From positions 1 through 11,393 of IMG/VR virus record IMGVR_UViG_3300050133_000071: 11,393 nt of DNA. The stretch is one strand, 5' to 3'. Position 1 is the stretch's first letter. Every line of letters starts with the position of its first letter. The notes beneath the pieces were generated by a model. It had not been told where the DNA came from and made no database searches. It worked only from the letters and a program-made list of their open reading frames with translations. Position numbers and translations under genes: made by a program. Positions 1 through 11,393 of this stretch are shown in pieces. This stretch comes from a virus.

Positions 1-2083
1 TATCACGTGAGTATTTACGGTATGCCGCCTGAAGTTTACCGGTAGACATAGCCATGATCTCATTCTTTGTCAGCAGTCGATCTCCAGATGACCTCCAGTA
101 TCCGTGTGCATCAATTTGCCATTGTGCGCGGGTATATTCATCCTTGGTTTTCATGACAGGGTGATCTGCATATGCCTTGCTTGTATCTGTGGGCAGTTTT
201 CGGAAAAGGAGAATGTATTCAGGGCACCCGATGCCCATCTTTGAACCATCTTTGCATTGCTCAGACCATCCGAGGCGATAAGTTTGATTATTTTCCCTTA
301 CGACGTCCGTTACAACCGTAATCATGCCAAAGTACTGAAACCCGTGCTTAATAAAATGCTCAATAACATAGACATGAAAAGGCTCTATGGTCGGCATTCC
401 GGTACCTGTGGCGTTACCAAACAAGACACGATCTTTTACGTGGATGGCGGCGACGCGCCCGGGCATAAGGCTGTGGTACAGGTTCGGGGTTAGATAATCC
501 ATCTGTTCGAAAAATCGGCCAGTGTTTGCGTTATGCCCGAAATCGTTATAGCTGGCCGAATATTCATAATGGTTGCCGAATGGGATCGATGTATGTATTA
601 AACCAAAGGTGTTTTCGGGTAACTGCTCGCATTCTAAGATGCAATCGTTATTTATGGCCGTGAAATGCTCTCCTTTGATTACCACTCGTTTCACCCCTAT
701 ACTGCGGGCCATTTTATCCATCACATTTACGCCTGCCAGTCCATATTTTTTTATAATCTCCGTCATTTTCTTTGCAAGGTAATTATGCTGTTCCCACTTT
801 TCGAGTAGTGCCTTAAGGATCTCGGCCTCTCCTTCGGTGTAGATAATGTCGATGATAACCTGATCGGTTTGCAGAAAGCGGTATATCCTATGGATGGCCT
901 GAATGAAATCATTGAACTTATAATCTATCCCGACAAATATAGCCCTATGGCAATGGCGCTGAAAATTGCAGCCGCTCCCTGATATTTTCTTTTTGGTGGC
1001 AAGCAGCCGTGTTTTGCCTTCTGAAAAGTCAATGGTTCTTTGCTCTTTGATATTGATATCTTCTGAGCCAAATATTTCAACAGCGTCCGGCAGTGCCTTC
1101 TTGATTGCATGCCGCTCGGCTTCAAGATCATGCCAGAGAATAAAATGCGCGTCAGGGTCCGAATTGACAATTTCAACTGTTTTTTTGACGCGGGCAGCGA
1201 GGCTCTCGTTTTTCTCGTGGGAAGCATCCGAAAGTGATACCGAGGCTTCGCGCATGATCTTCATCTGGCCGTCGCGGTCTTCCACCGGTGCGCCGCTCAT
1301 CGTTATTTTGTGGTACCTGACTTCAAGTGGCGGCAGGTCATAGCCGGTGTCGTCATATCCGAGGTCGCTTGGCTTCGTAATAAAGAGCGCCCAGCTGCTC
1401 AACCATGCCCAGAACTTATTTTCCTGCGATTTATAAAGCGTGAGGTTGTTCGCTTTGGTGCTGTCACGCTGAAAGAAGCGCGTGAGAGCCTGTCCGGTAT
1501 CCATCACCTCAAGGAAGCCTGCATAATGGATAAGTTCTTTGTATCGGTTTGGTGAAGGTGTGGCCGTCGAAACAAATTTATATTTCACGCCTTTGAATTT
1601 TATCAAGAATGTCTGATAGGTGTCTGACCCGTAACTCCGTAACACTGAAGCTTCGTCAAGATGGCAAACCATGAAATATTTAGGATCAATATCCCCATCC
1701 CTGACCCGCTCATAGTTGGTCATCATAATGTCATCTGTGCACGCTCTTACCTCAGCCATTGTACGGACGTATTGAGGCGGCAACATATGAAGGAGTTCAA
1801 CAGCGTCGCGGGTGAATTCCTGTTTCACCCCGAGCGGCAGAACTATAAGAGCTTTGCCGCCTTTATGCTTAATTACAATGCGGCTGATTTCAAGTTCCTG
1901 TGCTGTTTTCCCAAGCCCGAAAGCTTCAAAAATTGCGCGGCGCCCGCCACTTATTGCCCATTTGACGGCATCGCGCTGATGTGGCTTTAATACAGAATTG
2001 ATTTCGGAGGTCTCAATTTCAAAGCCTGTTTCAGGCGCGATATCAATTTTTGATTTAAGAAAATCTATGTAATTATTCGTCAC
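1..2083 (-). CDS. SNF2/DEAD-like helicase fused to a beta-class N6-adenine/N4-cytosine DNA methyltransferase domain (C-terminal end lies beyond position 1)
   Basis: Hand translation of the minus strand gives an uninterrupted frame from GTG at 2083 to the window edge. GGAGG at 2094-2098 lies 10 nt upstream of the GTG. The ORF is missing from the track because it is edge-truncated. Helicase motifs seen: FGLGKT (Walker A), HLDEAS (motif II) and QAIHRIYR (motif VI-like). The C-terminal half carries IHTSIPF, a (D/S)PP(Y/F)-type methyltransferase motif IV. Motif I is not yet reached, as expected for beta-class domain order. All plus-strand ORFs at 257-1990 are short and antisense to this frame. Confidence 0.85.
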   Translation of the reverse strand, partial: MTNNYIDFLKSKIDIAPETGFEIETSEINSVLKPHQRDAVKWAISGGRRAIFEAFGLGKTAQELEISRIVIKHKGGKALIVLPLGVKQEFTRDAVELLHMLPPQYVRTMAEVRACTDDIMMTNYERVRDGDIDPKYFMVCHLDEASVLRSYGSDTYQTFLIKFKGVKYKFVSTATPSPNRYKELIHYAGFLEVMDTGQALTRFFQRDSTKANNLTLYKSQENKFWAWLSSWALFITKPSDLGYDDTGYDLPPLEVRYHKITMSGAPVEDRDGQMKIMREASVSLSDASHEKNESLAARVKKTVEIVNSDPDAHFILWHDLEAERHAIKKALPDAVEIFGSEDINIKEQRTIDFSEGKTRLLATKKKISGSGCNFQRHCHRAIFVGIDYKFNDFIQAIHRIYRFLQTDQVIIDIIYTEGEAEILKALLEKWEQHNYLAKKMTEIIKKYGLAGVNVMDKMARSIGVKRVVIKGEHFTAINNDCILECEQLPENTFGLIHTSIPFGNHYEYSASYNDFGHNANTGRFFEQMDYLTPNLYHSLMPGRVAAIHVKDRVLFGNATGTGMPTIEPFHVYVIEHFIKHGFQYFGMITVVTDVVRENNQTYRLGWSEQCKDGSKMGIGCPEYILLFRKLPTDTSKAYADHPVMKTKDEYTRAQWQIDAHGYWRSSGDRLLTKNEIMAMSTGKLQAAYRKYSRD

Positions 2084-2282
2084 CGATATAAACCTCCTCT
2101 ATCAGGGTTACGTTATCAAAATAGATGATGTAGATGGTTTTGGATGAATTCGCGACTTTGAGCGTATTTCCGATCCGCTCACCATTTTCGCATATGCCTG
2201 ATATTGCACCGTAAAGATTTGACCTAGCTCTATATTTCCTGCCATAGAAAAGAACTGTATCTAATTTTGTCCCCAATTTCAA
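2073..2282 (-). CDS. hypothetical small protein (69 aa, TTG start)
   Basis: The ORF-track frame has a TTG start that overlaps the TGA of the upstream ASCH gene (TTGA). Its 3' end overlaps the helicase GTG by 11 nt, which is operon-style packing. It has no recognisable motif and no internal ATG. Confidence 0.35.
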   Translation of the reverse strand: MKLGTKLDTVLFYGRKYRARSNLYGAISGICENGERIGNTLKVANSSKTIYIIYFDNVTLIEEVYIGDE

Positions 2283-2794
2283 CCGGGCACTGCGCGGTGA
2301 ATGCTGCTGCTTGCATATTCAAAATTCCCTTCCGGTCTCCACGTCCAAAGACCCTGCGCGCCGCGGGCGGGCACCGGTTGGGTAAATGGCTGTGGATGCG
2401 TTGTGATCCAGGCGAACCGCCCCGGGCTATAATCCCCGAAGGCCAGCTCATCACCGGTAACCTCCCTCCCATTTGCGAGGAGCGCCGACATGTGCTTTGC
2501 TCCATTGATGGGGTTTGAGACTTCCCTGAGTTTGAGAATCTTTACGCAGTTTGTAACTTCGATGGTGCCGAGCACCGTACCGAGGGTCAGGGGCCGCGTT
2601 GCCAGTGCCCGTTGAAAAGCTGGCGTCTGCATAAGGGTCATAGCGTCGTCATCAAGCTTTTTCGCCGAATGAATAGCAATCAGGCCGCGGAAGTTTGTTG
2701 CCCATCCGCGCGTTTCTATTCCTTTTGCGCCGATGATCAGCAGCGTGGCCCACGGCTGCCAGTCGGTCAGGACCTTTATCTCATCTATGTGCAT
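2279..2794 (-). CDS. ASCH domain protein (PUA-like fold)
   Basis: The N-terminus WQPWATLLIIGAKGIETRGWATNFRGLIAIHS matches the classic ASCH signature (QPWA..I..G.K..E.R.W....RG...IH). The C-terminal GDYSPGRFAW...ARGAQGLWTW is also typical of this family. The start is ATG at 2794. Confidence 0.8.
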   Translation of the reverse strand: MHIDEIKVLTDWQPWATLLIIGAKGIETRGWATNFRGLIAIHSAKKLDDDAMTLMQTPAFQRALATRPLTLGTVLGTIEVTNCVKILKLREVSNPINGAKHMSALLANGREVTGDELAFGDYSPGRFAWITTHPQPFTQPVPARGAQGLWTWRPEGNFEYASSSIHRAVPG

Positions 2795-2803
2795 TTGCTC
2801 ACC

Positions 2804-3349
2804 TCAATCTAAAAACTTAAGCATGCCGCTCTCAAAATCGAGCCTGCAAGTGTCAAGGTCTTTGGCGGTCACATATTTGCGGCCGAACTGCTCTTTCATC
2901 GAAGTCCAAACTTTCCATGGTACCCGGAAGAAATCACAAAATCCGAAGGAAACCATGACAAAGCACTTGGCTCCGAGCCGAAAATGCAGGTTGAGGGCGT
3001 CGGTCTGCTCCGGCGTCACACGGTTTTGTGCCATTTTTTCGGTGTCAGTGTGTTTTGCCTCAAAGCAGACCGCATGGCCGCCGCTCAGTGTGCCCTTGAA
3101 ATCCGGCTGGGCCTTTTTCTCAAAGTTTGCGATGAACCTGCCCTCACCGAGATCCTTTATCGGTCGCATGGGCTCCGGTGTTTTCTCTATGTAGGCACGC
3201 CCTTCATTTTTATAAACCTCGCAGGCTCCGATAATAAGATTTTCAAAGGTTCTCCCACTGTTTCGATTTACCGCTCCTTGCAACTGACGTCTGGGATGCG
3301 TGCAATCTGCGATCATTGCCCTGAAATCAGCTGAGGTCATGTCACCCAT
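2804..3349 (-). CDS. recU: RecU-like Holliday junction resolvase (PD-(D/E)xK nuclease)
   Basis: GRTFENLI...YIEKTPEP...PDFKGTL..GHAVCFEAKHT...CFVMVSF mirrors the RecU layout (G..fE..I, K.P.P, D(F/Y).G...FEAK.T). AAGGAGGA lies 6 nt upstream of ATG 3349. Confidence 0.8.
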   Translation of the reverse strand: MGDMTSADFRAMIADCTHPRRQLQGAVNRNSGRTFENLIIGACEVYKNEGRAYIEKTPEPMRPIKDLGEGRFIANFEKKAQPDFKGTLSGGHAVCFEAKHTDTEKMAQNRVTPEQTDALNLHFRLGAKCFVMVSFGFCDFFRVPWKVWTSMKEQFGRKYVTAKDLDTCRLDFESGMLKFLD

Positions 3350-3363
3350 GGGCGTGTCCTCCT

Positions 3364-4125
3364 TTATCCTGTGTCGTTATCGTCTTCATCCGGCAGCCGA
3401 CCGCCTCCTTCCGCAAGGTCAACCGCGCCTTCTCTTATGCATTTCAGATATTTTGACGTGCCGGTTCTCTCTGAGCTGTAAACCTGATAGTCAAGCATCC
3501 TGTATCCTTTGGGTGTTGGTATTATTCTTTTGGGATCGATGCGCTTGATCTTCTTGTATTTCACGATTGGCTTTTTTAAGTTTCGGCTTGATGACCAGCG
3601 CCGCTTATGCTCCTCAGGTTTCTCCTTAGTGATATAGTGTGCAAGTCCGGTGTAATCGCCTCCGTCAAGATTGCTGCTGAGAACTCTCCCAAGTTTCCAA
3701 AGCTTTGTTGCAGCATCCCTGCTCATGCCGCTCATAATGAGGTGATGGTGTTCGCGCCCCTTTTCCCCTGTTTCCGTCACTGCAATCCATTTTATTTCTG
3801 GGAGAGCATTTTTCCGACGGTAATCGCGTAATCGCCTGAAATAGTTTTTAAGTTCCTTCTCAGGTTCTCCTTTTTTCGGGCGGCAGGCATATGTCAGGGT
3901 TATAAATAAGTCCTCCTCTGCAAAATTGCCATTAATTAGCCTGCTGAGTTTTTTCCGAGCATTTTGTTCGTTAAATTCCTGCTGCTGTTCTGGTGTTAAA
4001 CCTTGATTGCCTTTTCTCCTTGTATATGTTTCGCCCGGTTGGCGGAAGGAGACTATTTCTTCTATCTCACAAACCGGACCCGAATAAATATATTTACGGT
4101 AATTCATATTGCCATTTACCCCCAC
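3364..4125 (-). CDS. HUH-superfamily rolling-circle replication initiator (Rep)
   Basis: Three ordered RCR motifs are present: LFITLTY (motif 1, FLTLT-like), REHHHLIM (motif 2, HUH) and GLAHYITKE (motif 3, catalytic Y-x-x-K). The track start is GTG 4125. ATG 4107 (MNYRKY...) is an alternative start. Confidence 0.75.
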   Translation of the reverse strand: MGVNGNMNYRKYIYSGPVCEIEEIVSFRQPGETYTRRKGNQGLTPEQQQEFNEQNARKKLSRLINGNFAEEDLFITLTYACRPKKGEPEKELKNYFRRLRDYRRKNALPEIKWIAVTETGEKGREHHHLIMSGMSRDAATKLWKLGRVLSSNLDGGDYTGLAHYITKEKPEEHKRRWSSSRNLKKPIVKYKKIKRIDPKRIIPTPKGYRMLDYQVYSSERTGTSKYLKCIREGAVDLAEGGGRLPDEDDNDTG

Positions 4126-4181
4126 GTCCTTAAAATAATGATATTATCGAGGATTTAAAGAGCCTTCCTTAGCCCTTTTAA

Positions 4182-4210
4182 TTGACAACATATTGGGGTT
4201 ATGTTATACT
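4182..4210 (+). promoter_or_regulatory. sigma70-type promoter, TTGACA-17 nt-TATACT, pointing rightward against the operon
   Basis: TTGACA sits at 4182-4187 and TATACT at 4205-4210, separated by an exact 17-nt spacer. The site lies in the 179-nt gap between the 211-aa gene and rep. Confidence 0.6.
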
Positions 4211-4240
4211 GTTTTCAAGGTGTTCACTACAATATGTTGT
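4185..4240. repeat. 11-bp perfect inverted repeat bracketing the promoter -10 region
   Basis: ACAACATATTG (4185-4195) and CAATATGTTGT (4230-4240) are exact reverse complements, 34 nt apart. Confidence 0.7.
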
Positions 4241-4284
4241 ATGGTGCTTAGTGGCTCGATGTACAGTCGAGCCACTATTTTTTT
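4217..4284 (+). ncRNA. candidate approximately 68-nt antisense (counter-transcribed) small RNA in the rep leader
   Basis: It is bounded by the promoter above (predicted TSS about 4217) and the intrinsic terminator at 4251-4284. There is no credible ORF or RBS inside. It is antisense to any minus-strand transcript entering rep. Confidence 0.5.
4251..4284 (+). terminator. rho-independent terminator, plus strand only
   Basis: A 9-bp perfect stem pairs GTGGCTCGA (4251-4259) with TCGAGCCAC (4267-4275), with a 7-nt loop. TATTTTTTT follows at 4276-4284. On the minus strand no U-tract follows the hairpin. Confidence 0.65.
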
Positions 4285-4304
4285 GTGGCTTTTTATTTCA
4301 TATC

Positions 4305-4940
4305 TCATGTGGTATCATCATCCTCTTCAGGTTGCTCTTCTGTGAAGCCGATTTGAGGATACTCTTCGATGTCTCCTGCGGCTTTCCTTGTTGAAAATGC
4401 AAAACGACATTGTTTTGTTAATTCTTCCATTTGAACAACAAAATCCTTGTTTATGATTTCATAAGGCATGATAACAGCCATTATCATAAAACCGGTCTTT
4501 GCAACTATGTATATCTTTCCATTGGTTGTAAGCCGCTCGTATAATTCCAAGGTGTCAGCAGTGTCAGAAAGAGGGCTTAGATACTTGGCATCAATAAAGA
4601 CAAGGCCACGCTGAGTTTTTAGCGGAATAAGTACCCGCCCCGCTGCGACAATATTGAGCTTTTCGCTTTCAAGCCTGTTTTCGCAGGGCACAGCATCCTC
4701 AAAGGAGAATTGAGTCGGTAAATCTTCATGTTTATAAGTATATTTGTCATGAATTTTTTCAGGGATATCGAAGATAGCAAATATGCTTTCCTCCTCAAGG
4801 TTCGGTAACTCAAACGCTGGATACATGACAGCACCGTCACCGATCCAATGCACATCAATTCCTCCGTCGCTCAACTTTTTGTCGTAAATGAAAATGCGCT
4901 TACTTTTTGCGCAGATTGAAGCTATAGACTTAATTTTCAT
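4305..4940 (-). CDS. hypothetical protein (211 aa) with an acidic C-terminal tail
   Basis: GGAGGAG lies 9 nt upstream of ATG 4940. The ORF is long and compositionally normal, and it ends EEQPEEDDDTT. I recognise no family. Confidence 0.75.
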   Translation of the reverse strand: MKIKSIASICAKSKRIFIYDKKLSDGGIDVHWIGDGAVMYPAFELPNLEEESIFAIFDIPEKIHDKYTYKHEDLPTQFSFEDAVPCENRLESEKLNIVAAGRVLIPLKTQRGLVFIDAKYLSPLSDTADTLELYERLTTNGKIYIVAKTGFMIMAVIMPYEIINKDFVVQMEELTKQCRFAFSTRKAAGDIEEYPQIGFTEEQPEEDDDTT

Positions 4941-5166
4941 GCTTAATTGCTCCTCCGTCTTTCCTATTCCTTGTTTCCTCTGCTATGACTCGTTCATACG
5001 CCGGAGCGCTATATTTCGACAGTTGGCCACTCAGGCATTCTTCAGTTTGCTTGATAATCTCCTTGACTGCTTCAGGGCATCGCTCAATGTTTATATTGCT
5101 GCCGGTGCTCGCGACAATCCCGTGGTGATCCATCATTATGGTTATTGTGGCTATTCCCCATATCAT
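4930..5166 (-). CDS. hypothetical small protein (78 aa)
   Basis: GAGGGA lies 6 nt upstream of ATG 5166. The stop overlaps the next gene's start by 11 nt. Confidence 0.6.
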   Translation of the reverse strand: MIWGIATITIMMDHHGIVASTGSNINIERCPEAVKEIIKQTEECLSGQLSKYSAPAYERVIAEETRNRKDGGAIKHEN

Positions 5167-5232
5167 TGCGTGTCCCTCATTTCGTCTGTTTCTACCCCCT
5201 TTTATTTAAAGGCTTTGCAGCCACTATATTGA

Positions 5233-5580
5233 TTAAAAGAGTGATGTTTGTCTCGGCTTATTCTCATCTGGTATGATTTCAATTTCTTTATCTCGAGATC
5301 GATCACGTTTTTTATATTGTTTCACTTCCATCTGCTCAGCAATCTCAGTGAGGATGCAGCTGCCATAGCCAAGCCGAATTTCATACCCTTCGTTTAAATA
5401 ATCCGATTCCGCACCCACATCACGCTTGAGGCGCTGTAAGCGGCAACAAAATTCCGTGTAATCGATGCTGAGCCATCCGTCCCCGCCTTCGTTAAACCGA
5501 ATGCTCACTCGTGGAAAGCCGCTTTTTAATGTCGGTGGGTTTAGGCCGTATATCTTCCAATAAGGCTGCTCGCAAACCAT
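5233..5580 (-). CDS. hypothetical protein (115 aa from the internal ATG)
   Basis: The track ORF runs 5233-5610. AAGGGAGGG lies 6 nt upstream of ATG 5580 (MVCEQPYW...), whereas the longer start has no RBS. I recognise no family. Confidence 0.75.
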   Translation of the reverse strand: MVCEQPYWKIYGLNPPTLKSGFPRVSIRFNEGGDGWLSIDYTEFCCRLQRLKRDVGAESDYLNEGYEIRLGYGSCILTEIAEQMEVKQYKKRDRSRDKEIEIIPDENKPRQTSLF

Positions 5581-5610
5581 GATCAACCCTCCCTTTGCAG
5601 TTGACTGCAA

Positions 5611-5787
5611 AACGTATTTCCGTGAGTTTCGCTCGGCCCCGAATAATTCTCAGCGGGAGTGGTAGGACTTTCAACGGAGGCCGATATAGCCTGTCCATAT
5701 CTATTTGCCACTCACTCTCTACTGGCGATTGGATATAAGTGTCCGACTTCTATCCTTTCTCGGAGCCGAGCGCAGCCCGCGGCTGCG
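5611..5787 (-). other. structured non-coding leader, copy A of a duplicated bipartite element
   Basis: Read on the minus strand, the 5' block CGCAGCCGCGGGCTGCGCTCGGCTCC (5787-5762) matches copy B at 23 of 26 positions. The 3' block GGGGCCGAGCGAAACTCACGGAAATA (5640-5615) matches copy B at 22 of 26. About 120 nt of hairpin-rich insert separates the two blocks. Confidence 0.45.
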
Positions 5788-5856
5788 TAACTGTTACATT
5801 GGTCCCACCCATCCTTTCACGGTAAGTCAAGCCCAAGGTTGCTATCTCATTTTCAC

Positions 5857-5885
5857 TTGTAATATTTAGCCTTATGGTGTAATAT
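5857..5885 (+). promoter_or_regulatory. candidate promoter TTGTAA-17 nt-TAATAT for the plus-strand zinc-ribbon gene
   Basis: TTGTAA is at 5857-5862 and TAATAT at 5880-5885, with a 17-nt spacer, 22 nt upstream of the ATG. It overlaps a tandem TATGGTGT-AA-TATGGTGT at 5873-5890. Confidence 0.5.
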
Positions 5886-5907
5886 GGTGTCGGAAGGAGG
5901 CGATTGT

Positions 5908-6303
5908 ATGCCAACAACTGGAGAGAAGCCGGGCAAGGGTTATTACAAATGCATAAAATGCTGGACAGTTATTCTTCTTGATAATGATGTTGATACTTTG
6001 CCACCATGCCCGCATTGTGAAAACATAGATTTCTTAAATAGCGGAAAGCTATTTCCGTGGACAAACAATAATATTGAAGATGCAATACAAATTATCGATT
6101 TAGATAAGAAATTAAATCCTTCCGAAAAGGAAGATTTTAAGTCTGTAATCCCCGATCTGATTTCAGAAACTCCTAAGACCAATGCTGCATTACAAAAAGC
6201 AAAAAAGTATATGAAAAAGTTCGGAACTTCTGCTGCCTTGTCGTTTAGACAATTTATAATTGACTGGTCCTGCGAATTTGTAAAAAAATCACTACAGGGG
6301 TAA
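5908..6303 (+). CDS. zinc-ribbon (CxxC...CxxC) protein, 131 aa, opposite-strand insert
   Basis: GGAAGGAGG lies 7 nt upstream of ATG 5908. The N-terminus YKCIKC...17 aa...CPHC is a four-cysteine ribbon, and the rest is lysine-rich and helical-looking. The gene is visibly AT-richer than its flanks. Confidence 0.8.
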   Translation: MPTTGEKPGKGYYKCIKCWTVILLDNDVDTLPPCPHCENIDFLNSGKLFPWTNNNIEDAIQIIDLDKKLNPSEKEDFKSVIPDLISETPKTNAALQKAKKYMKKFGTSAALSFRQFIIDWSCEFVKKSLQG

Positions 6304-6317
6304 ACTTATGCTTGGTA

Positions 6318-6554
6318 TCATCCCCACGCGTTGTGGCGTTTAAGAACGTCAATTAACTCGGGCGCGTATTCTTCATCAATATTTACAACTATGTATTCAG
6401 ATTTTGAATTGCGCCCTTGTAATACACGCATATTGCCAATCCAATGGTTGGCCTCGTTAATCGCATTCTGAAGTTTCAGAGGTAGCAGTTCAATATCAGA
6501 TAGTTTAAAAACAAGATGGGTAAGGCGCCCGCCGCATTTCATAGATTTATTCAT
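6318..6554 (-). CDS. hypothetical small protein (78 aa from the internal ATG)
   Basis: GGGGGAGGAGGA lies 5 nt upstream of ATG 6554 (MNKSMKCGG...). The 37-aa N-terminal extension in the track (to 6665) has no RBS and runs through structured element B. Confidence 0.75.
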   Translation of the reverse strand: MNKSMKCGGRLTHLVFKLSDIELLPLKLQNAINEANHWIGNMRVLQGRNSKSEYIVVNIDEEYAPELIDVLKRHNAWG

Positions 6555-6574
6555 ATTATGTCCTCCTCCCCCTG

Positions 6575-6673
6575 TTCTTTTTCCGTGGGTTCCGCGCGGC
6601 CCCAAAATCACAGTTGCAACTGCCAAACAGCCATGATTTTTATTTAGGAGCTGCGCGCAGCCCACGGCTGCGC
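6575..6673 (-). other. structured non-coding leader, copy B of the duplicated bipartite element
   Basis: On the minus strand, an 8-bp hairpin GCGCAGCC-GTG-GGCTGCGC (6673-6655) is followed by GCAGCTCC. Downstream lies GGGGCCGCGCGGAACCCACGGAAAAAG (6603-6577). About 43 nt separates the 5' block from the 3' block, including the palindrome CAGTTGCAACTG (6611-6622). Confidence 0.45.
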
Positions 6674-6748
6674 TATGTATTTATTCTGATATTGCGCGGC
6701 CTTTTCGTGCAATATGGGCATATGTAACCTTTGCGCGGGATCCTGGCC

Positions 6749-6919
6749 TTAATGCTTATGTTCCAGCCTTTTCGGCAAACTGAGCATCTTGCGTTCAAGC
6801 TTAATCAGCCCCTTCCGGAGCGAACGGATCTGCAACAAGCATCTGAATATCAGAGCAGCGCAGCCTATCCAAATTGAGATAAACATTAGATAGATAATCA
6901 GATCGTATATGGTGTGCAT
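6749..6919 (-). CDS. small membrane protein (56 aa; one TM helix plus a basic tail)
   Basis: It is below the track size cut-off. AGGAGA lies 7 nt upstream of ATG 6919 and overlaps the TAG stop of the upstream gene. Translation: MHTIYDLIIYLMFISIWIGCAALIFRCLLQIRSLRKGLIKLERKMLSLPKRLEHKH. Confidence 0.6.
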   Translation of the reverse strand: MHTIYDLIIYLMFISIWIGCAALIFRCLLQIRSLRKGLIKLERKMLSLPKRLEHKH

Positions 6920-6930
6920 AAGTGATTCTC

Positions 6931-8190
6931 CTATTCTTCCGGGTCGTATTCTTCTTTCACGTCTTCGGCGTCAATCAAACTATCCATGTCGTCAAATGCG
7001 CACTGGCGGTTTTCGAGAAGTGCATCCGTGCTGTCAAACACATCTAAAATAGTGGGAATTCCCTTGCTTCGCGTTTTATAGAGTTTTCTCAATTCTTCTG
7101 CCATGCCGTAGTCCATGAGCGCTTTCCACTGCGAATGGTGCGTATGGCGTAACATTTGCTGATGATTGTTTTTATATAAGATGTCTGTTGCACAACCCAT
7201 GCAGCCATTGCGTTGCATTTTGTGTTCTATTCCTTTATTGTCCGTGTAAGCCACGTTGTATACTTCCGAATATGGCACATCAAAAGTGTGTATGTACTCC
7301 CAAATATCATCATCCGTCCAAATCTGTAATGGATTGCAATGGTAAAAAGGGTCTTCTCCGAGATGCGGCCTATGAGATTTAAATAAATATCCTCGCGTTG
7401 CAAAATTGATTTTCCTCGTCCGGCTTTCTGATGCCATTAAGCCTTTGAATATCACATCGACATCAAGTTCCACCTGCAATTTTTCGGAAGGTTCCTTTTT
7501 AATGAGCTTGCAACAGTGCTGCGAAAATTTGCACTCTCTCAAGATGTCATAATATTTCAGGAGCTCTTCTTTATTGCTTGCGCTTTCAGAAAATTTTAAA
7601 AAACAGTCAATATTGATTCTCCTTGCGTCAAGCTTTGAGGCCGCCTTGCCTAAAATCGGGAAACCGTACTGATCTGCGCACCACCAATAAGACATTATTG
7701 TCCCAGCAGGCCAAACAAGATTCCGTTTTTTAAAGTCCTCCCACATCTCATGAGTTGCCTTTTGTTCAAAAGAGTGGGTATTTTTAAGCTTGCCATCATC
7801 TTTTAGCACCTCTGAAAGCCTGCCCTCTTTAATGAGCCATTCCAGCACTTCACGCTGAGCCTGATATTTTAAACCATTTTCTTCGGTGCGGCTAAGTTGT
7901 GTTTCGTAAAAGTGTTCACCGCCCCATTTTTTCCCGAGTTGACGGGCAAATTTTAAACTTTCAGGGTATTCAACGCCAGTATTTCCAAAGATGATTTCAG
8001 GCGTTCTTTCGGGAAAATATGTACGAATTAAATGCCACAAAACGGTGCTGTCTTTACCACCGCTAAACGCAATGGCTGTATTATGCGTTGATACTGCAAA
8101 TCCGGCGGCTATTGCTTCAATGGCTTTGTCTATCTTGTAGTCAAGTGGCTTTTTGATTTCGGCCGCAATGTCGGTAAATGATATGTACGT
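6931..8190 (-). CDS. PP-loop ATP-pyrophosphatase / PAPS-reductase-like protein (DndC/IbrA-like family); 5' end uncertain
   Basis: The track starts at TTG 8040, but the same frame is open upstream to 8205 and encodes AIAFSGGKDSTVLW, the SGGKDS PP-loop. The family-typical CCKLIKKEP and C-terminal GCMGC cysteine motifs are also present. There is no ATG, GTG or TTG between 8040 and 8205. ACG 8190-8188 sits 6 nt after GGAGGG. The stop is TAG 6933-6931. Confidence 0.8.
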   Translation of the reverse strand, partial: TYISFTDIAAEIKKPLDYKIDKAIEAIAAGFAVSTHNTAIAFSGGKDSTVLWHLIRTYFPERTPEIIFGNTGVEYPESLKFARQLGKKWGGEHFYETQLSRTEENGLKYQAQREVLEWLIKEGRLSEVLKDDGKLKNTHSFEQKATHEMWEDFKKRNLVWPAGTIMSYWWCADQYGFPILGKAASKLDARRINIDCFLKFSESASNKEELLKYYDILRECKFSQHCCKLIKKEPSEKLQVELDVDVIFKGLMASESRTRKINFATRGYLFKSHRPHLGEDPFYHCNPLQIWTDDDIWEYIHTFDVPYSEVYNVAYTDNKGIEHKMQRNGCMGCATDILYKNNHQQMLRHTHHSQWKALMDYGMAEELRKLYKTRSKGIPTILDVFDSTDALLENRQCAFDDMDSLIDAEDVKEEYDPEE

Positions 8191-8192
8191 GT

Positions 8193-8564
8193 TTATCCCT
8201 CCAATTCACCAAGCGCAGCCGCGATCTCGGCCTCACGCTTTATGTAGCCGTTTAATGCGTCAGGCCTGTGCAGCCCCATCACTTCAACCACTCTCCGGCT
8301 GACCTGAACCTTATTTAGTTGCTCTTTTAATTCCCGAATTGTTACTCGAACCGATCGTCCCGAAATGTAACGGCTATTATCAGAGGTTAAGTGCGGGTAA
8401 TCTGTAGGGTCGTCAGGTTCAAATTTATCGGGGCACTCCGGAAAATCGTCCTTGTCGGGCTCTTCGGGCTACGCGGTGAATGTGGCCGTTAAACGCCGCT
8501 CTATGCCATTGAAAAAAGTCTCGCCGGTATTGCCCTGATGGTAAATTTCGCAAGCTGACATCAC
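8193..8564 (-). pseudogene. coding-looking frame (about 123 codons) interrupted by one in-frame TAG; unknown function
   Basis: AAGGAGGA lies 8 nt upstream of GTG 8564 and 11 nt upstream of ATG 8561. Thirty sense codons follow, then TAG at 8471-8469, then 91 more stop-free codons to TAA 8195-8193. The segment after the TAG has no start codon near its beginning. No ORF appears in the track anywhere in 8041-8632. Confidence 0.6.
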
Positions 8565-8632
8565 TTTTTTATTCCTCCTTTACATAAATTTCTAACCTCT
8601 GCTTGCCGAACTGTACCGCCGCGGCGTGGGTG

Positions 8633-8932
8633 TTATTTGCTCGCGTGCAATCTCGCATGTTCTTTCCTCGACATAATCATAAGATTTTCCGGTCGATTGT
8701 CGCGCTTATCGCCGTTGATAACGCTACAATACTTAGAGGTTAACTTCTTTTTAGCGAAACTTTTCCCACAAGTCGGGCAAATGGAATACTGAGTTTCCGT
8801 TCTACTCTTATGCATCCCAACACATTGCCGTGAGCAAAACCTCTGTTCATGGTCAGCACGAGCCGTGAAAGGCTTTCCACATTCCTCACAGACAAAGGTT
8901 TTCATTTTTCTGGATTTTGCGAAATTATCCAT
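8633..8932 (-). CDS. HNH-family endonuclease remnant (two zinc ribbons plus a truncated HNH core)
   Basis: CEECGKPF...FCSRQC and CPTCGKSF...YCS are two zinc ribbons. The C-terminus INGDKRDNRPENLMIMSRKEHARLH is the distal part of an HNH motif, but the usual preceding VHH catalytic histidine and linker are absent. AGGAG lies 8 nt upstream of ATG 8932. Confidence 0.7.
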   Translation of the reverse strand: MDNFAKSRKMKTFVCEECGKPFTARADHEQRFCSRQCVGMHKSRTETQYSICPTCGKSFAKKKLTSKYCSVINGDKRDNRPENLMIMSRKEHARLHASK

Positions 8933-9366
8933 ACCTTTAGCTCCTGTTTTCCGAAATTTAACGCCGATTGATGGTCGTTCATAAAAATATCAATATGTTT
9001 GCCTTTGATTTTGCCACCGATATCCTGCACTACTCGGGTGCCTTCAACCCCGTCTATTTGCACCTCTGTCCCTTCCGGCAGCACCGACCAGTCGGCCGCG
9101 ATCGTTATACCCTCAACCGCTTTAACTCCGCTTTTGGTTATGCCGTCCGTTTTTCCGCAATCCTCATATGTAGCGGAGTATGCCGTGACCGTAAATGTGC
9201 CTAAATCTATCAATGCGGTTTGCACCCCGCTGCGCTGATCTGCTGAGCATTGGACGATTATTGTGTAAACCTGCGCTGGCTTGTCCGCTTTTGCCGGAAG
9301 CGGACCGATTATAAGTAGAAATACTGTAATTGCCGTAAGTACCGCGACTCTCTTTATATGTCGCAT
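8902..9366 (-). CDS. secreted 3D-domain protein (RlpA/MltA-like double-psi beta-barrel, peptidoglycan-acting)
   Basis: The N-terminus looks like a signal peptide (VAVLTAITVFLLIIGPLPAKA). It is followed by TAYSATYEDCGKTDGITKSG...IAAD...LPEGT...VQDIGGKIKGKHIDIF, the 3D-domain pattern. GGAGGGG lies 5 nt upstream of ATG 9366. Confidence 0.8.
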   Translation of the reverse strand: MRHIKRVAVLTAITVFLLIIGPLPAKADKPAQVYTIIVQCSADQRSGVQTALIDLGTFTVTAYSATYEDCGKTDGITKSGVKAVEGITIAADWSVLPEGTEVQIDGVEGTRVVQDIGGKIKGKHIDIFMNDHQSALNFGKQELKVWIISQNPEK

Positions 9367-9384
9367 TACATCCCCTCCGATATT

Positions 9385-9639
9385 TCAGCTTTTATTTTGC
9401 ATTGCTGCCGTTCCCCCGTTGCGCTGCCACTTATCAAGTTCGTCCTGGATAAAATAGATGCGATTGCCAACAAGATAATATAATCCTTCGAGCTTGCCTT
9501 GCTTATGTAGCCGCCGAAGCGTCCGCTCCGAGCAGGGTATGGCCGCGGCGGCCTCTTTGAAATCAAGTGGGGTGATCAAGCGGTTCACTTCCTTTCTACT
9601 CGTCGCACATGGTTGTTTTTTCTTGTCTTTTTCGCCCAT
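9385..9639 (-). CDS. excisionase-family HTH DNA-binding protein (HTH_17-like)
   Basis: LITPLDFKEAAAAIPCSERTLRRLHKQGKLEGLYYLVGNRIYFIQDELDKWQ is the Xis/MerR-like winged-helix pattern. ATG 9639 has no RBS and sits inside a 9-bp inverted repeat. TTG 9579, preceded by GAAAGGAAGTGA, is an alternative start giving 64 aa. Confidence 0.7.
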   Translation of the reverse strand: MGEKDKKKQPCATSRKEVNRLITPLDFKEAAAAIPCSERTLRRLHKQGKLEGLYYLVGNRIYFIQDELDKWQRNGGTAAMQNKS

Positions 9640-9662
9640 AAAATGTAATATTGTGGGCGAAA
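9630..9662. repeat. 9-bp perfect inverted repeat spanning the annotated xis-like ATG
   Basis: TTTCGCCCA (9630-9638) and TGGGCGAAA (9654-9662) are exact reverse complements with a 15-nt spacer. Confidence 0.6.
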
Positions 9663-9835
9663 GAGATAACGCCGAGCCAAGCCCTTAGGGGAAGGTGTAA
9701 CGACTGGACACGGAGCAACCGTTCGCGGCGGTTGAAGGCACAGTCTGAACTTTGCGGTGACGTAAAGAGCTTGACGGAAACGATTAGGCCACGCAGAAAT
9801 GCGGAGTAACAAATTGGATTAATGGAATTAGTAAT

Positions 9836-9982
9836 ATGAGTGATATGAGTAAAACAATAGGCAAAGGTCTTTATTCTTCATTTGAGGGGTTAGACAAAAT
9901 TTCTGAAACATTTGGCAACGCATTCAAAGGCATTACATCCATAAAAATAAATCCAGAGGTGAATGGTCGCCCTGCCGCGTAG
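9836..9982 (+). CDS. possible small protein (48 aa), weakly supported
   Basis: ATG 9836 to TAG 9982 translates to MSDMSKTIGKGLYSSFEGLDKISETFGNAFKGITSIKINPEVNGRPAA, which is protein-like and amphipathic. It lies in an AT-rich tract on the same strand as the next gene. There is no convincing RBS. Confidence 0.25.
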   Translation: MSDMSKTIGKGLYSSFEGLDKISETFGNAFKGITSIKINPEVNGRPAA

Positions 9983-10054
9983 TAATATGTGGTCTGCACT
10001 CCGTAAATTCGGCGAAAGTCTCTTTCTAATATTGTGGCGAAAGGAGGAATACGT

Positions 10055-10315
10055 ATGATTTATTCAATAAGTTACGATCTCAAAAAGCCCGGCAGAAGTT
10101 ACGAAGAAGTATATGGCGCAATTAAATTGATTGGTGCATGGGCGCATTGCCTTGAATCCACATGGGTGGTTGAATCTGATTTAAGTGCAGAGCAGATTTA
10201 TAAAATTGTTCATGCCAAAATGGACGAAAACGATTATCTACTTGTTTCTAAAATTGGAGAATCGCATTGGCTGTTGGAAAAGGAAGTTTCGGATTGGCTT
10301 AGCAATCACCTTTAG
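10055..10315 (+). CDS. small protein (86 aa) with predicted beta-alpha-beta-beta-alpha-beta (ferredoxin/Cas2-like) pattern; function unknown
   Basis: AAAGGAGGA lies 6 nt upstream of ATG 10055 (MIYSISYDL...). The pattern is a hydrophobic strand plus YDL, a helix, then STWVVES, a helix, then DYLLVSKI. The fold assignment is by eye only. The stop is TAG. Confidence 0.75.
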   Translation: MIYSISYDLKKPGRSYEEVYGAIKLIGAWAHCLESTWVVESDLSAEQIYKIVHAKMDENDYLLVSKIGESHWLLEKEVSDWLSNHL

Positions 10316-10460
10316 ACCCACATTCAACATTCAACCCGGTGCCAACAGTTACAACTCCATCGGTGCAACCTGTTGGTACAAATTTTTCTTTCGGCTGCGC
10401 TGTTTCTTCCAGCGTGGCCACTCTTTTTTCAAGGTCTTCGATGCGTTTATTGTTAAACAT
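10299..10460 (-). CDS. hypothetical small protein (53 aa; N-terminal coiled-coil-like, Cys/Gly-rich tail)
   Basis: It is below the track cut-off. AAGGAGGTG lies 7 nt upstream of ATG 10460. Translation: MFNNKRIEDLEKRVATLEETAQPKEKFVPTGCTDGVVTVGTGLNVECGSKGDC. Its 3' end overlaps the convergent plus-strand gene by 17 nt. Confidence 0.6.
   Translation of the reverse strand: MFNNKRIEDLEKRVATLEETAQPKEKFVPTGCTDGVVTVGTGLNVECGSKGDC
10338..10390 (+). terminator. candidate intrinsic terminator for the plus-strand cassette
   Basis: The stem pairs GGTGCCAACAG (10338-10348) with CTGTTGGTAC (10370-10379), with core CCAACAG/CTGTTGG. The loop is large, about 21 nt. AAATTTTTCTTT follows. The whole structure lies inside the convergent 53-aa gene. 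Confidence 0.35.
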
Positions 10461-10498
10461 TCTTTTTCACCTCCTTCTTATTCCGTCCCAATGTATGG

Positions 10499-10708
10499 TC
10501 AGGCCGTGTCGCGGGTATCGGGTTTTAAATCCTGAGCTACCATATAGGCTTCAAATCTTGCCCGAACGATAATGTAGCGCCATGAATTTTTAAGCCAGAT
10601 TGCGTGGCCGAACGGGCAATTAGGGTCTTTTGTCCACTCTCTAATCGTGGGAATATCAAGACCCATAATTTTCGCGACCTCTTCGGCCTTGATTAATATT
10701 TCCGACAC
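10499..10708 (-). CDS. HTH DNA-binding protein (excisionase/AlpA-like)
   Basis: The start is GTG 10708, with AAGGAGG 10 nt upstream. LIKAEEVAKIMGLDIPTIREWTKDPNCPF...W is an HTH_17-like pattern. Confidence 0.7.
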   Translation of the reverse strand: MSEILIKAEEVAKIMGLDIPTIREWTKDPNCPFGHAIWLKNSWRYIIVRARFEAYMVAQDLKPDTRDTA

Positions 10709-10747
10709 CGACTGCTCGCCTCCTTTCTTGTTTCGTGCTATGTATGG

Positions 10748-10996
10748 TTAGACGCTGGTGGGGGATGCGGGCGTTCGTGGTGTGGAGTAGATGAAACCAG
10801 AATCTATCGCGAAAAGATAACTAATTTCAAGATTTGAGAACAAAGTATTCCGTATCTTCAACACATCAAACCATGAAATCTTTGTTGCGCCATTGAGATA
10901 GTTTCTCGCGGTCTTTTCGCTAACTCCTAAACAATCGCATATATCCTTGACCGCTAATCCATGGCGCGCCATTTCAGCCGCAAGATTTTTGAACAT
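10748..10996 (-). CDS. Cro-like XRE-family HTH regulator, first gene of the leftward early operon
   Basis: VKDICDCLGVSEKTARNYLNGATKISWFDVLKI is an XRE-type HTH. The gene is divergent from the CI-like gene across an operator-bearing region. Confidence 0.8.
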   Translation of the reverse strand: MFKNLAAEMARHGLAVKDICDCLGVSEKTARNYLNGATKISWFDVLKIRNTLFSNLEISYLFAIDSGFIYSTPRTPASPTSV

Positions 10997-11014
10997 ATAT
11001 TCACCGCCTTTCTC

Positions 11015-11103
11015 TAACCGTATTCGGTTACCATATCCATATAATAATACCGTATTCGGTTAATGTCAAGGACTTTTAAAAGATATTTTACCGAATGCGG
11101 TTA
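11015..11103. promoter_or_regulatory. three operator copies (AACCG-N4-CGGTT palindrome family)
   Basis: The three copies are TAACCGTATTCGGTTA (11015-11030, perfect dyad), TACCGTATTCGGTTA (11048-11062) and TACCGAATGCGGTTA (11089-11103). Confidence 0.75.
11041..11069 (-). promoter_or_regulatory. leftward early promoter, TTGACA-17 nt-TATTAT
   Basis: On the minus strand, TTGACA is at 11069-11064 and TATTAT at 11046-11041. The middle operator fills the 17-nt spacer. Confidence 0.6.
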
Positions 11104-11121
11104 TTTATTCCTAATATTTTA

Positions 11122-11150
11122 TTGACAATCGGAAACAAAGGATTTATAGT
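11122..11150 (+). promoter_or_regulatory. rightward promoter, TTGACA-17 nt-TATAGT, for the CI-like gene
   Basis: TTGACA is at 11122-11127 and TATAGT at 11145-11150, with a 17-nt spacer, 22 nt upstream of ATG 11173. Confidence 0.65.
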
Positions 11151-11172
11151 ATATTTATGGATGGTGATATTA

Positions 11173-11393
11173 ATGGGATTAGATTTAATAAACATTTTAA
11201 AAAAGCAAAAAGGGCTTACAAGCGAAGAACTTGCAAAGCTTTCAGGTGTGCCCATCGGAACACTTAATAAGATACTAAACGGACAGTCAAAAAATCCTCA
11301 ATTAGAAACTTTAGCTGCCCTTGCTCGAGTGTTGGAATGTTCAATAGATGATTTTGATACTTCATTTAACAACAACTTCGCCATAGACCCTGC
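11173..11393 (+). CDS. CI-like XRE-family HTH repressor (3' end beyond the window)
   Basis: Hand translation: MGLDLINILKKQKGLTSEELAKLSGVPIGTLNKILNGQSKNPQLETLAALARVLECSIDDF..., a canonical HTH_3 domain. The frame is open to the window edge. GGTGA lies 5 nt upstream of the ATG. Confidence 0.85.
   Translation, partial: MGLDLINILKKQKGLTSEELAKLSGVPIGTLNKILNGQSKNPQLETLAALARVLECSIDDFDTSFNNNFAIDP

Follow-up and report, generated by a model that had tools for sequence, protein, structure and literature searches.

A putative antisense small-RNA gene beside the predicted rolling-circle origin of a phage-like element and its relatives

What is encoded opposite the leader of rep, the rolling-circle initiator gene in the viral record IMGVR_UViG_3300050133_000071, and might it play a part in the control of replication? 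To our knowledge, replication control is essentially uncharacterised in tailed phages that carry an initiator of the HUH type, including the common prophages of Clostridium, Faecalibacterium, Butyrivibrio and Latilactobacillus. The stretch analysed here (positions 1 to 11,393 of the record, 11,393 nucleotides (nt) in all, hereafter the window) belongs to an element whose source is peat metagenomes. A first-pass annotation, made from the letters of the DNA alone, had proposed that the gap upstream of rep holds a promoter, a short transcript and a terminator on the strand opposite rep, resembling the counter-transcribed RNAs (ctRNAs) by which plasmids control their initiators, or alternatively a replication origin. 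We have found that positions 4182-4284 look like a gene whose product is a non-coding RNA of about 68 nt, antisense to the minus-strand early operon.

The promoter of the proposed RNA gene (Table 1) agrees with the consensus at 11 of 12 positions, carries in addition the TG of an extended -10, and was among the three best sites in a promoter scan of the 11.4-kb window, in keeping with the near-consensus promoter first noticed opposite rep; it is probably a strong, constitutive promoter of the sigma-A type. The terminator hairpin begins 32 nt past the predicted RNA start. It had been described as strong, specific to the plus strand and built on a stem of 9 bp, of which the first two points hold, and because the stem consists of 12 pairs the terminator is stronger than was stated. 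It is expected to work on the plus strand only, since the minus-strand sequence after the hairpin, AAGCACC, lacks a T-run. The predicted 68-nt RNA, starting near A4217, folds with an energy of -24.3 kcal/mol (z = -4.3). On direct reading its sole AUG opens a frame of 5 codons, and the view that a discrete RNA of this size contains no open reading frame (ORF) was thus borne out in the sequence. A small peptide was considered as the function of the transcript (MLYGA in the window, MLFGK in the related locus L003) and was rejected, as it is too short and its conserved bases are explained by an inverted repeat described below. A search of the small-RNA region against Rfam at E values up to 1 gave no match, and no homology to a described ctRNA family was found; a scan of the same region for tRNA and tmRNA returned nothing.

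Relatives of Rep were gathered by profile search, a locus search with the single protein having returned no viral relative and one genome relative. This gave 163 loci, representing 128 distinct sequences, in which the 300-350 nt upstream of the rep start were examined. Under a strict rule (a promoter with a score of 10 or more and a terminator 30-130 nt downstream of it) a promoter-plus-terminator unit was present antisense to rep in 52 of the 128, in the rep-sense orientation in none of the 128, and in none of 858 control segments taken from related loci; looser rules raised these counts to 74/128, 1/128 and 12/850, respectively. Promoters scored alone, at 10/12 or better, were antisense in 46/128 (with a 17-nt spacer) and rep-sense in 1/128. 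The units form at least 11 clusters without mutual sequence similarity, their spacers all measure 17 nt, and the RNAs predicted in 18 of the related loci are 56-82 nt long, 68 nt being typical. No match was obtained when positions 3300-5000 of the window were compared by blastn with GenBank phages, nor when the exact terminator hairpin was searched for in viral contigs. It appears from this pattern that the promoter-plus-terminator unit is a selected transcription unit making a small RNA, and not a product of chance. The earlier proposal of a discrete antisense RNA gene in the rep leader, similar to that of ctRNA plasmids, is thereby supported by recurrence in at least 11 unrelated clades. As the same layout is found in many relatives that look unrelated, the RNA gene probably controls phage DNA replication.

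Two features of a single relative, the Clostridium butyricum-type prophage L170, may be recorded separately. Its own version of the RNA (2352-2420) is preceded by a perfect 12/12 promoter, TTGACA-17-TATAAT, and an ORF of 67 amino acids (aa) with a strong ribosome-binding site follows the terminator on the antisense strand.

The clade to which the window belongs consists of two distinct sequences, the window and L003, with Rep proteins that are 69% identical. The segment covering promoter and RNA is 81.6% identical between the two, compared with 68.4% for rep and 62.1% for the upstream ORF, and the promoter hexamers are the same. In the terminator stem two pairs have changed on both sides with pairing kept, and two further U-A pairs have become U.G, which allows pairing on the plus strand only. 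A similar strand preference was seen in the larger clades, where the terminator pairs that depart from Watson-Crick pairing are G.U on the small-RNA strand, with counts of 12 versus 0 in one of them and 10 versus 0 in another.

Table 1. Positions of the features discussed, in window coordinates; repeats of related loci are given by length.
Feature	Position	Strand	Details
Small-RNA promoter	4182..4210	+	-35 TTGACA 4182-4187; 17-nt spacer; TG 4202-4203; -10 TATACT 4205-4210
Predicted non-coding RNA	4217..4284	+	about 68 nt; weakly structured 5' part of about 32 nt, then terminator hairpin
Intrinsic terminator	4249..4284	+	stem 4249-4277, 12 pairs (11 Watson-Crick and one G.U); 5-nt loop; T7 4278-4284
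Inverted-repeat left arm	4185..4195	.	ACAACATATTG; in -35/spacer of RNA promoter, outside small RNA
Inverted-repeat right arm	4230..4240	.	CAATATGTTGT; about +14 to +24 of small RNA
GC hairpin	4157..4178	-	AAAGGGCU-AAGGAA-GGCUCUUU, then UUUAAAU; rep-sense strand; between nick motif and RNA promoter
Putative double-strand-origin nick motif	4134..4151	-	CTCGATAATATCATTATT; family motif match
rep, HUH rolling-circle initiator	3364..4107	-	247 aa from ATG 4107 (product P0001); 253 aa if GTG 4125
Upstream ORF, function unknown	4305..4940	-	211 aa, phrog_24518; stop codon 4305-4307
RecU-type resolvase	2804-3349	-	
ASCH-like ORF		-	among the genes around the RNA gene
L023 repeat			11 nt
L032 repeat			10 nt
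L170 (C. butyricum-type prophage) repeat			13 nt, bracketing -10
phiS63 repeat			9 nt
L084, L080, L066 and L028 repeats			8-11 nt, by eye

The product of rep had been annotated as an HUH initiator, and several lines of evidence agree. The protein matches PF23343 (E = 1.7e-13) and phrog_3584 (1.9e-59), and residues H120-H121-H122 and Y158-I-x-K161, the latter within the YITKE motif of Rep, are invariant across 19 Rep homologues. The best matches of its confident AlphaFold model (predicted local distance difference test score, pLDDT, 84.8) are HUH endonuclease domains, namely those of circovirus, geminivirus, SIRV1 and Helitron proteins, with probabilities of 0.93-0.99 and weak E-values of 0.02-0.1, and of parvovirus proteins. 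No solved structure for Rep or a relative was detectable by sequence search. With the ATG chosen by the gene caller the gap upstream of rep measures 197 nt; the figure of 179 nt given at first applies if translation begins at the GTG.

The real genes in the neighbourhood are all on the minus strand. When the 300 nt upstream of rep were scanned for rep-sense promoters scoring 10/12 or better, a single locus had one, the other 127 of the 128 being without. The minus-strand promoter that had been suggested in the window (TTGAAA-17-CAATAT) scores 8/12 only, was unreported by the scan and has been set aside. The small RNA is perfectly complementary to the leader between 110 and 177 nt before the rep ATG, and its target is present on read-through transcripts only. 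The ctRNA-like position first described for it is therefore right in so far as the RNA lies opposite the rep leader, and wrong in so far as no overlap with the rep start exists. In the clades of L004, L089 and L104 the 5' part of the RNA has contiguous complementarity of 11, 12 and 15 nt to rep codons 1-5 (shuffle p of 0.003 or less), which connects the RNA directly with rep in these relatives. L095, a variant of the L089 clade, carries a tandem duplication of this start-pairing 5' segment (AGATGTATCTTGGGC) at 100-160 nt upstream of rep.

A second question is where the origin lies with respect to the RNA gene. A double-strand origin had been placed within the flagged repeats; what we have found instead is a putative nick motif and a hairpin which adjoin that interval, at 4134-4178 on the rep-sense strand. 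The family motif, CTYGATAA-N4-ATTAAC, occurs upstream of rep in 47 of the 128 loci in the rep-sense orientation, in none of them (0/128) antisense and in 7 of 1354 controls, and it keeps fixed distances from the rep ATG; its match in the window is the sole one there, with 0.09 expected. The nick core of the window, CTCGATAA at 4144-4151 on the minus strand, has one substitution relative to CTTGATA, and by analogy with CTTG/ATA the nick is predicted to fall between G4148 and A4147 of that strand. The origin of phiX174 reads CAACTTG/ATATTAATAAC, and the AT-rich, ATTAAC-like element that follows the core resembles the phiX174 origin CAACTTGATATTAATAAC. In origins of the Rep_1/pC194 type the conserved nick site is CTTGATA (PMC10378824). 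As in the pC194 and pUB110 (Rep_1) origins, the core is rep-sense and upstream of rep, being exact in L003 and most relatives and CTCGATA in the window. Unlike the pC194 and phiX174 origins, the initiator belongs to PF23343 and not to Rep_1 or Phage_GPA, the replicon is a tailed-phage genome of 26-54 kb, and the site includes, as a conserved component, a GC hairpin located 5-7 nt 5' of the core.

Such a GC hairpin ends within 15 nt of the nick core, on its 5' side (5-7 nt in most of the listed examples), in 62/128 loci on the rep strand, compared with 2/128 on the other strand. In the window, 4 nt separate the end of the hairpin from the -35 of the small-RNA promoter, and several clades show an overlap between its 3' arm and the -35. 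Two pairs of the window hairpin are not Watson-Crick, reading G.U on the minus strand and A.C on the plus, and wobbles that read as G.U (or G.T) on the rep strand were seen in the window, in L003 and in three other clades. Since the wobbles sit on the rep strand, the hairpin would be a structure of the nicked strand or of a rep-sense RNA, and it may serve as a recognition hairpin for Rep, as a leader attenuator or as both. As a separate observation, an exact 14-nt direct repeat, TACTAGATATTAAC, is present in L164 (phiSM101 of C. perfringens SM101), in which the homologous RNA unit occupies 2300-2395 on the minus strand. Of its two copies, at 2311-2324 and 2416-2429, one forms part of the putative nick motif ahead of rep; the other is located in the small-RNA terminator hairpin, in its loop and 3' arm, and might be either an additional Rep site or a signal for termination.

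The -10 of the RNA promoter is bracketed by an inverted repeat, which had been reported as perfect over 11 bp and is indeed an exact 11-mer. Both arms are invariant in L003, and 5 of the 34 bases between them differ. The small RNA holds the right arm only; the rep-sense read-through transcript holds both, and they form an 11-bp stem in its predicted fold. Repeats of the same geometry and of unrelated sequence were found elsewhere (Table 1), one arm occupying the -35/spacer or the bases before it and the other falling at about +9 to +25 of the RNA, and non-cognate pairs of arms never gave more than 9 nt. In two clades an imperfect position of the repeat, judged by eye, is G.U on the rep strand. 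In clades with an RNA able to pair with the rep start no such repeat was seen, the longest match (4-7 nt) being within the non-cognate range. A pattern search for the inverted repeat in viral contigs was also tried and discarded, its 4 matches all being unrelated long hairpins in other phages. We hypothesize that the repeat acts as a leader stem that presents the complement of the RNA 5' end in its loop.

Two further observations concern the same bases. The context of the rep start, CAATATG (4105-4111), echoes the core of the repeat arm, and because of this echo the segment ACAACAUAUUG of the read-through transcript (4240 to 4230) could form two alternative pairings, one of 11 bp with 4195-4185 and one of 7-8 bp with the start codon; the alternative is kept in L003 (CAATATGT), and no regulatory consequence emerged from it. 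A second promoter-like site on the plus strand, TTGCCA-16-TAAAAT at 4109-4136 (10/12), overlaps the rep start region and could yield a longer plus-strand transcript, of about 140 nt, with both repeat arms in it and its 3' end at the same terminator. This site is partly kept in L003, but is constrained by coding sequence and ribosome-binding site.

Small RNAs that face an initiator gene are known from plasmids of Gram-positive bacteria and from phage lambda. Plasmid ctRNAs include RNAI of pT181 (87 nt), RNAI of pSK41 (about 83 nt, with its target about 100 nt upstream of the rep start), RNAIII of pIP501 and the antisense RNAs predicted for pC194 and pUB110 (PMC5703833). Like these, the RNA predicted here would be untranslated, have its own promoter opposite rep and consist of a 5' tail and a terminator hairpin, a likeness that exists here at the level of sequence only. 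As in pSK41, it has its target in the rep leader, away from the start codon. As in pT181 and pIP501, the stretch from the target to the rep start contains a hairpin with U residues behind it, and an HUH initiator is combined with a pC194-type nick core, as in the ctRNA plasmid pC194. The differences are several. The window RNA lies inside a multi-gene phage early operon and not opposite a dedicated rep transcript, the nick site is inside the leader, between the RNA promoter and rep, and neither an RNA-dependent terminator nor refolding of the start site is predicted in the window. No relationship to the plasmid RNAs was seen in sequence or in Rfam, and the relatives are of two types, having either an RNA that pairs with rep codons 1-5 or, like the window, a gene with a repeat bracketing the -10.

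The OOP RNA of lambda, 77 nt long, is made from promoter pO and ends at terminator tO, and it has been implicated in antisense cleavage of the cII-O transcript and in the silencing of replication (PMC3349717). The RNA of the window resembles it as a short self-terminating RNA directed against an early operon. Both are found near the origin, in the interval that separates the initiator gene from the gene before it, and their position is conserved among related phages. In contrast, about 55 nt at the end of cII are overlapped by OOP, which acts on that gene, whereas the window RNA has its 3' end (4284) 21 nt short of the stop codon of the upstream ORF, with no overlap; the median distance in the relatives is 7 nt. 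Lambda O is an iteron-binding, theta-type initiator with the origin inside its gene, unlike the HUH nickase of the window with an origin upstream of the gene. The first-pass annotation had regarded this type of control as unusual in a phage; the logic is less unusual than was claimed, because OOP is itself a short antisense RNA just upstream of a phage initiator gene (PMC3349717). Our RNA gene differs from ctRNAs and OOP in its setting (the HUH module of a tailed phage), in its placement (upstream of the nick site and with no overlap of a neighbouring gene) and in having two RNA types. No description of an antisense-RNA unit beside an HUH phage origin was found in the searchable literature.

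The explanation that we favour, and to which we would give an even chance, is that the small RNA is an antisense brake on Rep of the plasmid-ctRNA or lambda OOP type. It builds on promoter and terminator signals, on their conservation and strand bias and on the neighbouring origin motif, all of which are present in the DNA, and it would further require that the RNA is transcribed, that rep is co-transcribed with the genes before it and that the effect on Rep is negative. The mechanism in the window clade is the least certain part, as it had to be inferred for an RNA that does not pair with rep codons 1-5. Since neither pairing with the rep start nor refolding was found in the window, simpler effects are proposed for it, namely duplex decay and transcriptional interference. 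The duplex between leader and RNA, 68 bp long, would be exposed to RNase III-type cleavage and decay, with the target presented in the stem-loop into which the inverted repeat might fold the leader. Polymerases from the small-RNA promoter would also collide head-on with those reading toward rep. Lower Rep synthesis could then act as a threshold or copy-number-type brake on the firing of the origin, for example by keeping Rep off in a lysogen.

Several points weigh against an antisense brake. The reading takes for granted a read-through transcript of the upstream genes, from which we infer that rep is most likely translated, because it has no promoter of its own, and which would make the small RNA a counter-transcript of the rep leader. 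A metatranscriptome contig of one related locus, L006, does run unbroken from the upstream ORFs through the gap into rep, but it is unstranded and DNA carry-over is possible. The same locus is covered by contigs of 200-235 nt from three RNA-seq runs of one organism (unstranded, depth 3-6), whose left edge is sharp (1913/1921) and whose right edge is ragged (2112-2155), and which span a Cys-rich ORF of 44 aa (1960-2094) together with the 3' part of the predicted small RNA; these unstranded assemblies neither confirm nor exclude the small RNA. A search of RNA runs yielded none that contains the window or L132. The pairing of the window RNA with the rep start is not significant (longest run 8 nt, p = 0.47), and constrained folding of the window predicted no RNA-dependent change in the GC hairpin or in the accessibility of Shine-Dalgarno sequence and AUG (0.36 vs 0.37). 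No consistent effect of the RNA on leader folding was obtained in 18 loci either, so that a structural switch of the pT181 or pSK41 type is unsupported in the window. About 40% of the related loci failed the automatic scan, although the unit is visible by eye in several of these. Finally, the covariation statistics of the window clade are weak, the observed values being reached by 131 of 500 shuffles, because only two distinct sequences are available.

If not a brake, the RNA gene could be coupled to the origin itself, an explanation that we consider unlikely. Here the act of transcription, or the RNA as a primer, would matter, and not antisense control. The promoter points away from hairpin and nick site, and the negative supercoils in its wake would aid melting or extrusion of the site to be cut by Rep; alternatively the RNA, complementary to the part of the nicked strand that is displaced last, would prime complementary-strand synthesis as a single-strand origin does. 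The closeness of the -35 to the origin hairpin in the window, and its overlap with a hairpin arm in several clades, would suit such a role, as would the absence of a predicted RNA-induced refolding of the rep leader and the fact that geometry and promoter strength are conserved and RNA sequence is not. The polarity and position of the RNA, just 5' of the nick on the displaced strand, also fit a primer, and pT181-type single-strand origins are known to use a primer made by RNA polymerase (PMC5714925). For supercoiling, however, there would be no need of a conserved RNA size, of strand-specific selection on the terminator or of the 11-15 nt of complementarity to the rep start in three clades, and a 3' end made of a hairpin and a U tail is a poor primer. 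On the displaced strand the G.U pairs of the terminator turn into C.A mismatches, and this speaks against selection for a structure of single-stranded DNA. The CS-6 element of ssoA-type single-strand origins is TAGCGT, and no CS-6-like motif is present in the gap (no TAGCGW in 4108-4304); an origin of the ssoA type is not supported there.

It is also conceivable, and to our minds quite unlikely, that the RNA acts in trans on a main target elsewhere, be it host or phage mRNAs or the rep transcripts of a related superinfecting phage (immunity or incompatibility), and that its linkage to rep is historical or serves co-inheritance. A strong promoter that looks constitutive would fit expression from a prophage, and action in trans is feasible in those clades where the RNA pairs with a site that it does not overlap, the rep start. 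It was shown that lambda oop-ori plasmids inhibit incoming rep-lambda phages (PMC3349717). A duplex-energy scan of the window for other pairing sites, on the other hand, returned nothing outstanding, and nothing convincingly at a start region, and a local function is suggested by the constant association with rep and origin in clades whose RNAs are unrelated in sequence. That the repeat and hairpins are merely DNA-level elements (sites for Rep or a repressor, or cruciforms), with promoter and terminator features as by-products and no functional RNA, is very improbable. In its favour, repeats are common in origins, the window and L003 have identical arms of the 11-bp repeat, and the phiSM101 terminator loop holds a 14-nt copy of the origin motif flank. 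Against it, the strand asymmetry of promoter and terminator is extreme across the family, the terminator wobbles suit RNA on one strand only, the repeat arms vary in sequence and position while keeping their pairing potential, which fits nucleic-acid pairing better than a protein site, and the conserved nick motif lies outside the flagged interval.

If the RNA is real, it would represent a widespread class of phage regulatory RNA that is missed by homology searches, because only its geometry is conserved, and the probable origin of these phages would be pinned to an 18-nt motif and a hairpin. One -10 hexamer would then provide a handle on how a prophage silences a nicking initiator and on its commitment to replication, and an antisense RNA of this kind may explain incompatibility or exclusion between related prophages. 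One could go further and regard RNA gene, hairpin and nick site as a single origin-control unit of temperate phages of Clostridia and the gut, in which hairpin-bound Rep shuts off the antisense promoter to give a bistable switch, the RNA of a prophage blocks superinfecting relatives, and the two RNA types are alternative solutions. We hold this extension to be decidedly doubtful; if true, it would amount to a self-committing bistable switch for rolling-circle replication and to an immunity at the level of replication that is independent of the repressor.

Relatives of Rep are encoded by temperate phages of Clostridium perfringens (phiSM101, phiS63), Latilactobacillus, Butyrivibrio and Faecalibacterium, and the small-RNA gene and the rep module belong to a temperate phage or a phage-like element. 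Elsewhere in the window, a group I intron model matches 9281-9767 on the plus strand with 23.9 bits, against a gathering score of 50 (E = 0.012); the match includes a large unaligned insert, overlaps the antisense of an ORF with an HTH_17 domain and is probably spurious. Two divergent 11/12 promoters about 50 nt apart, at 11041-11069 (minus strand) and 11122-11150 (plus strand), lie beside a small helix-turn-helix ORF (10748-10996, minus strand), and this pair resembles a lysis-lysogeny switch that would drive the minus-strand early operon.

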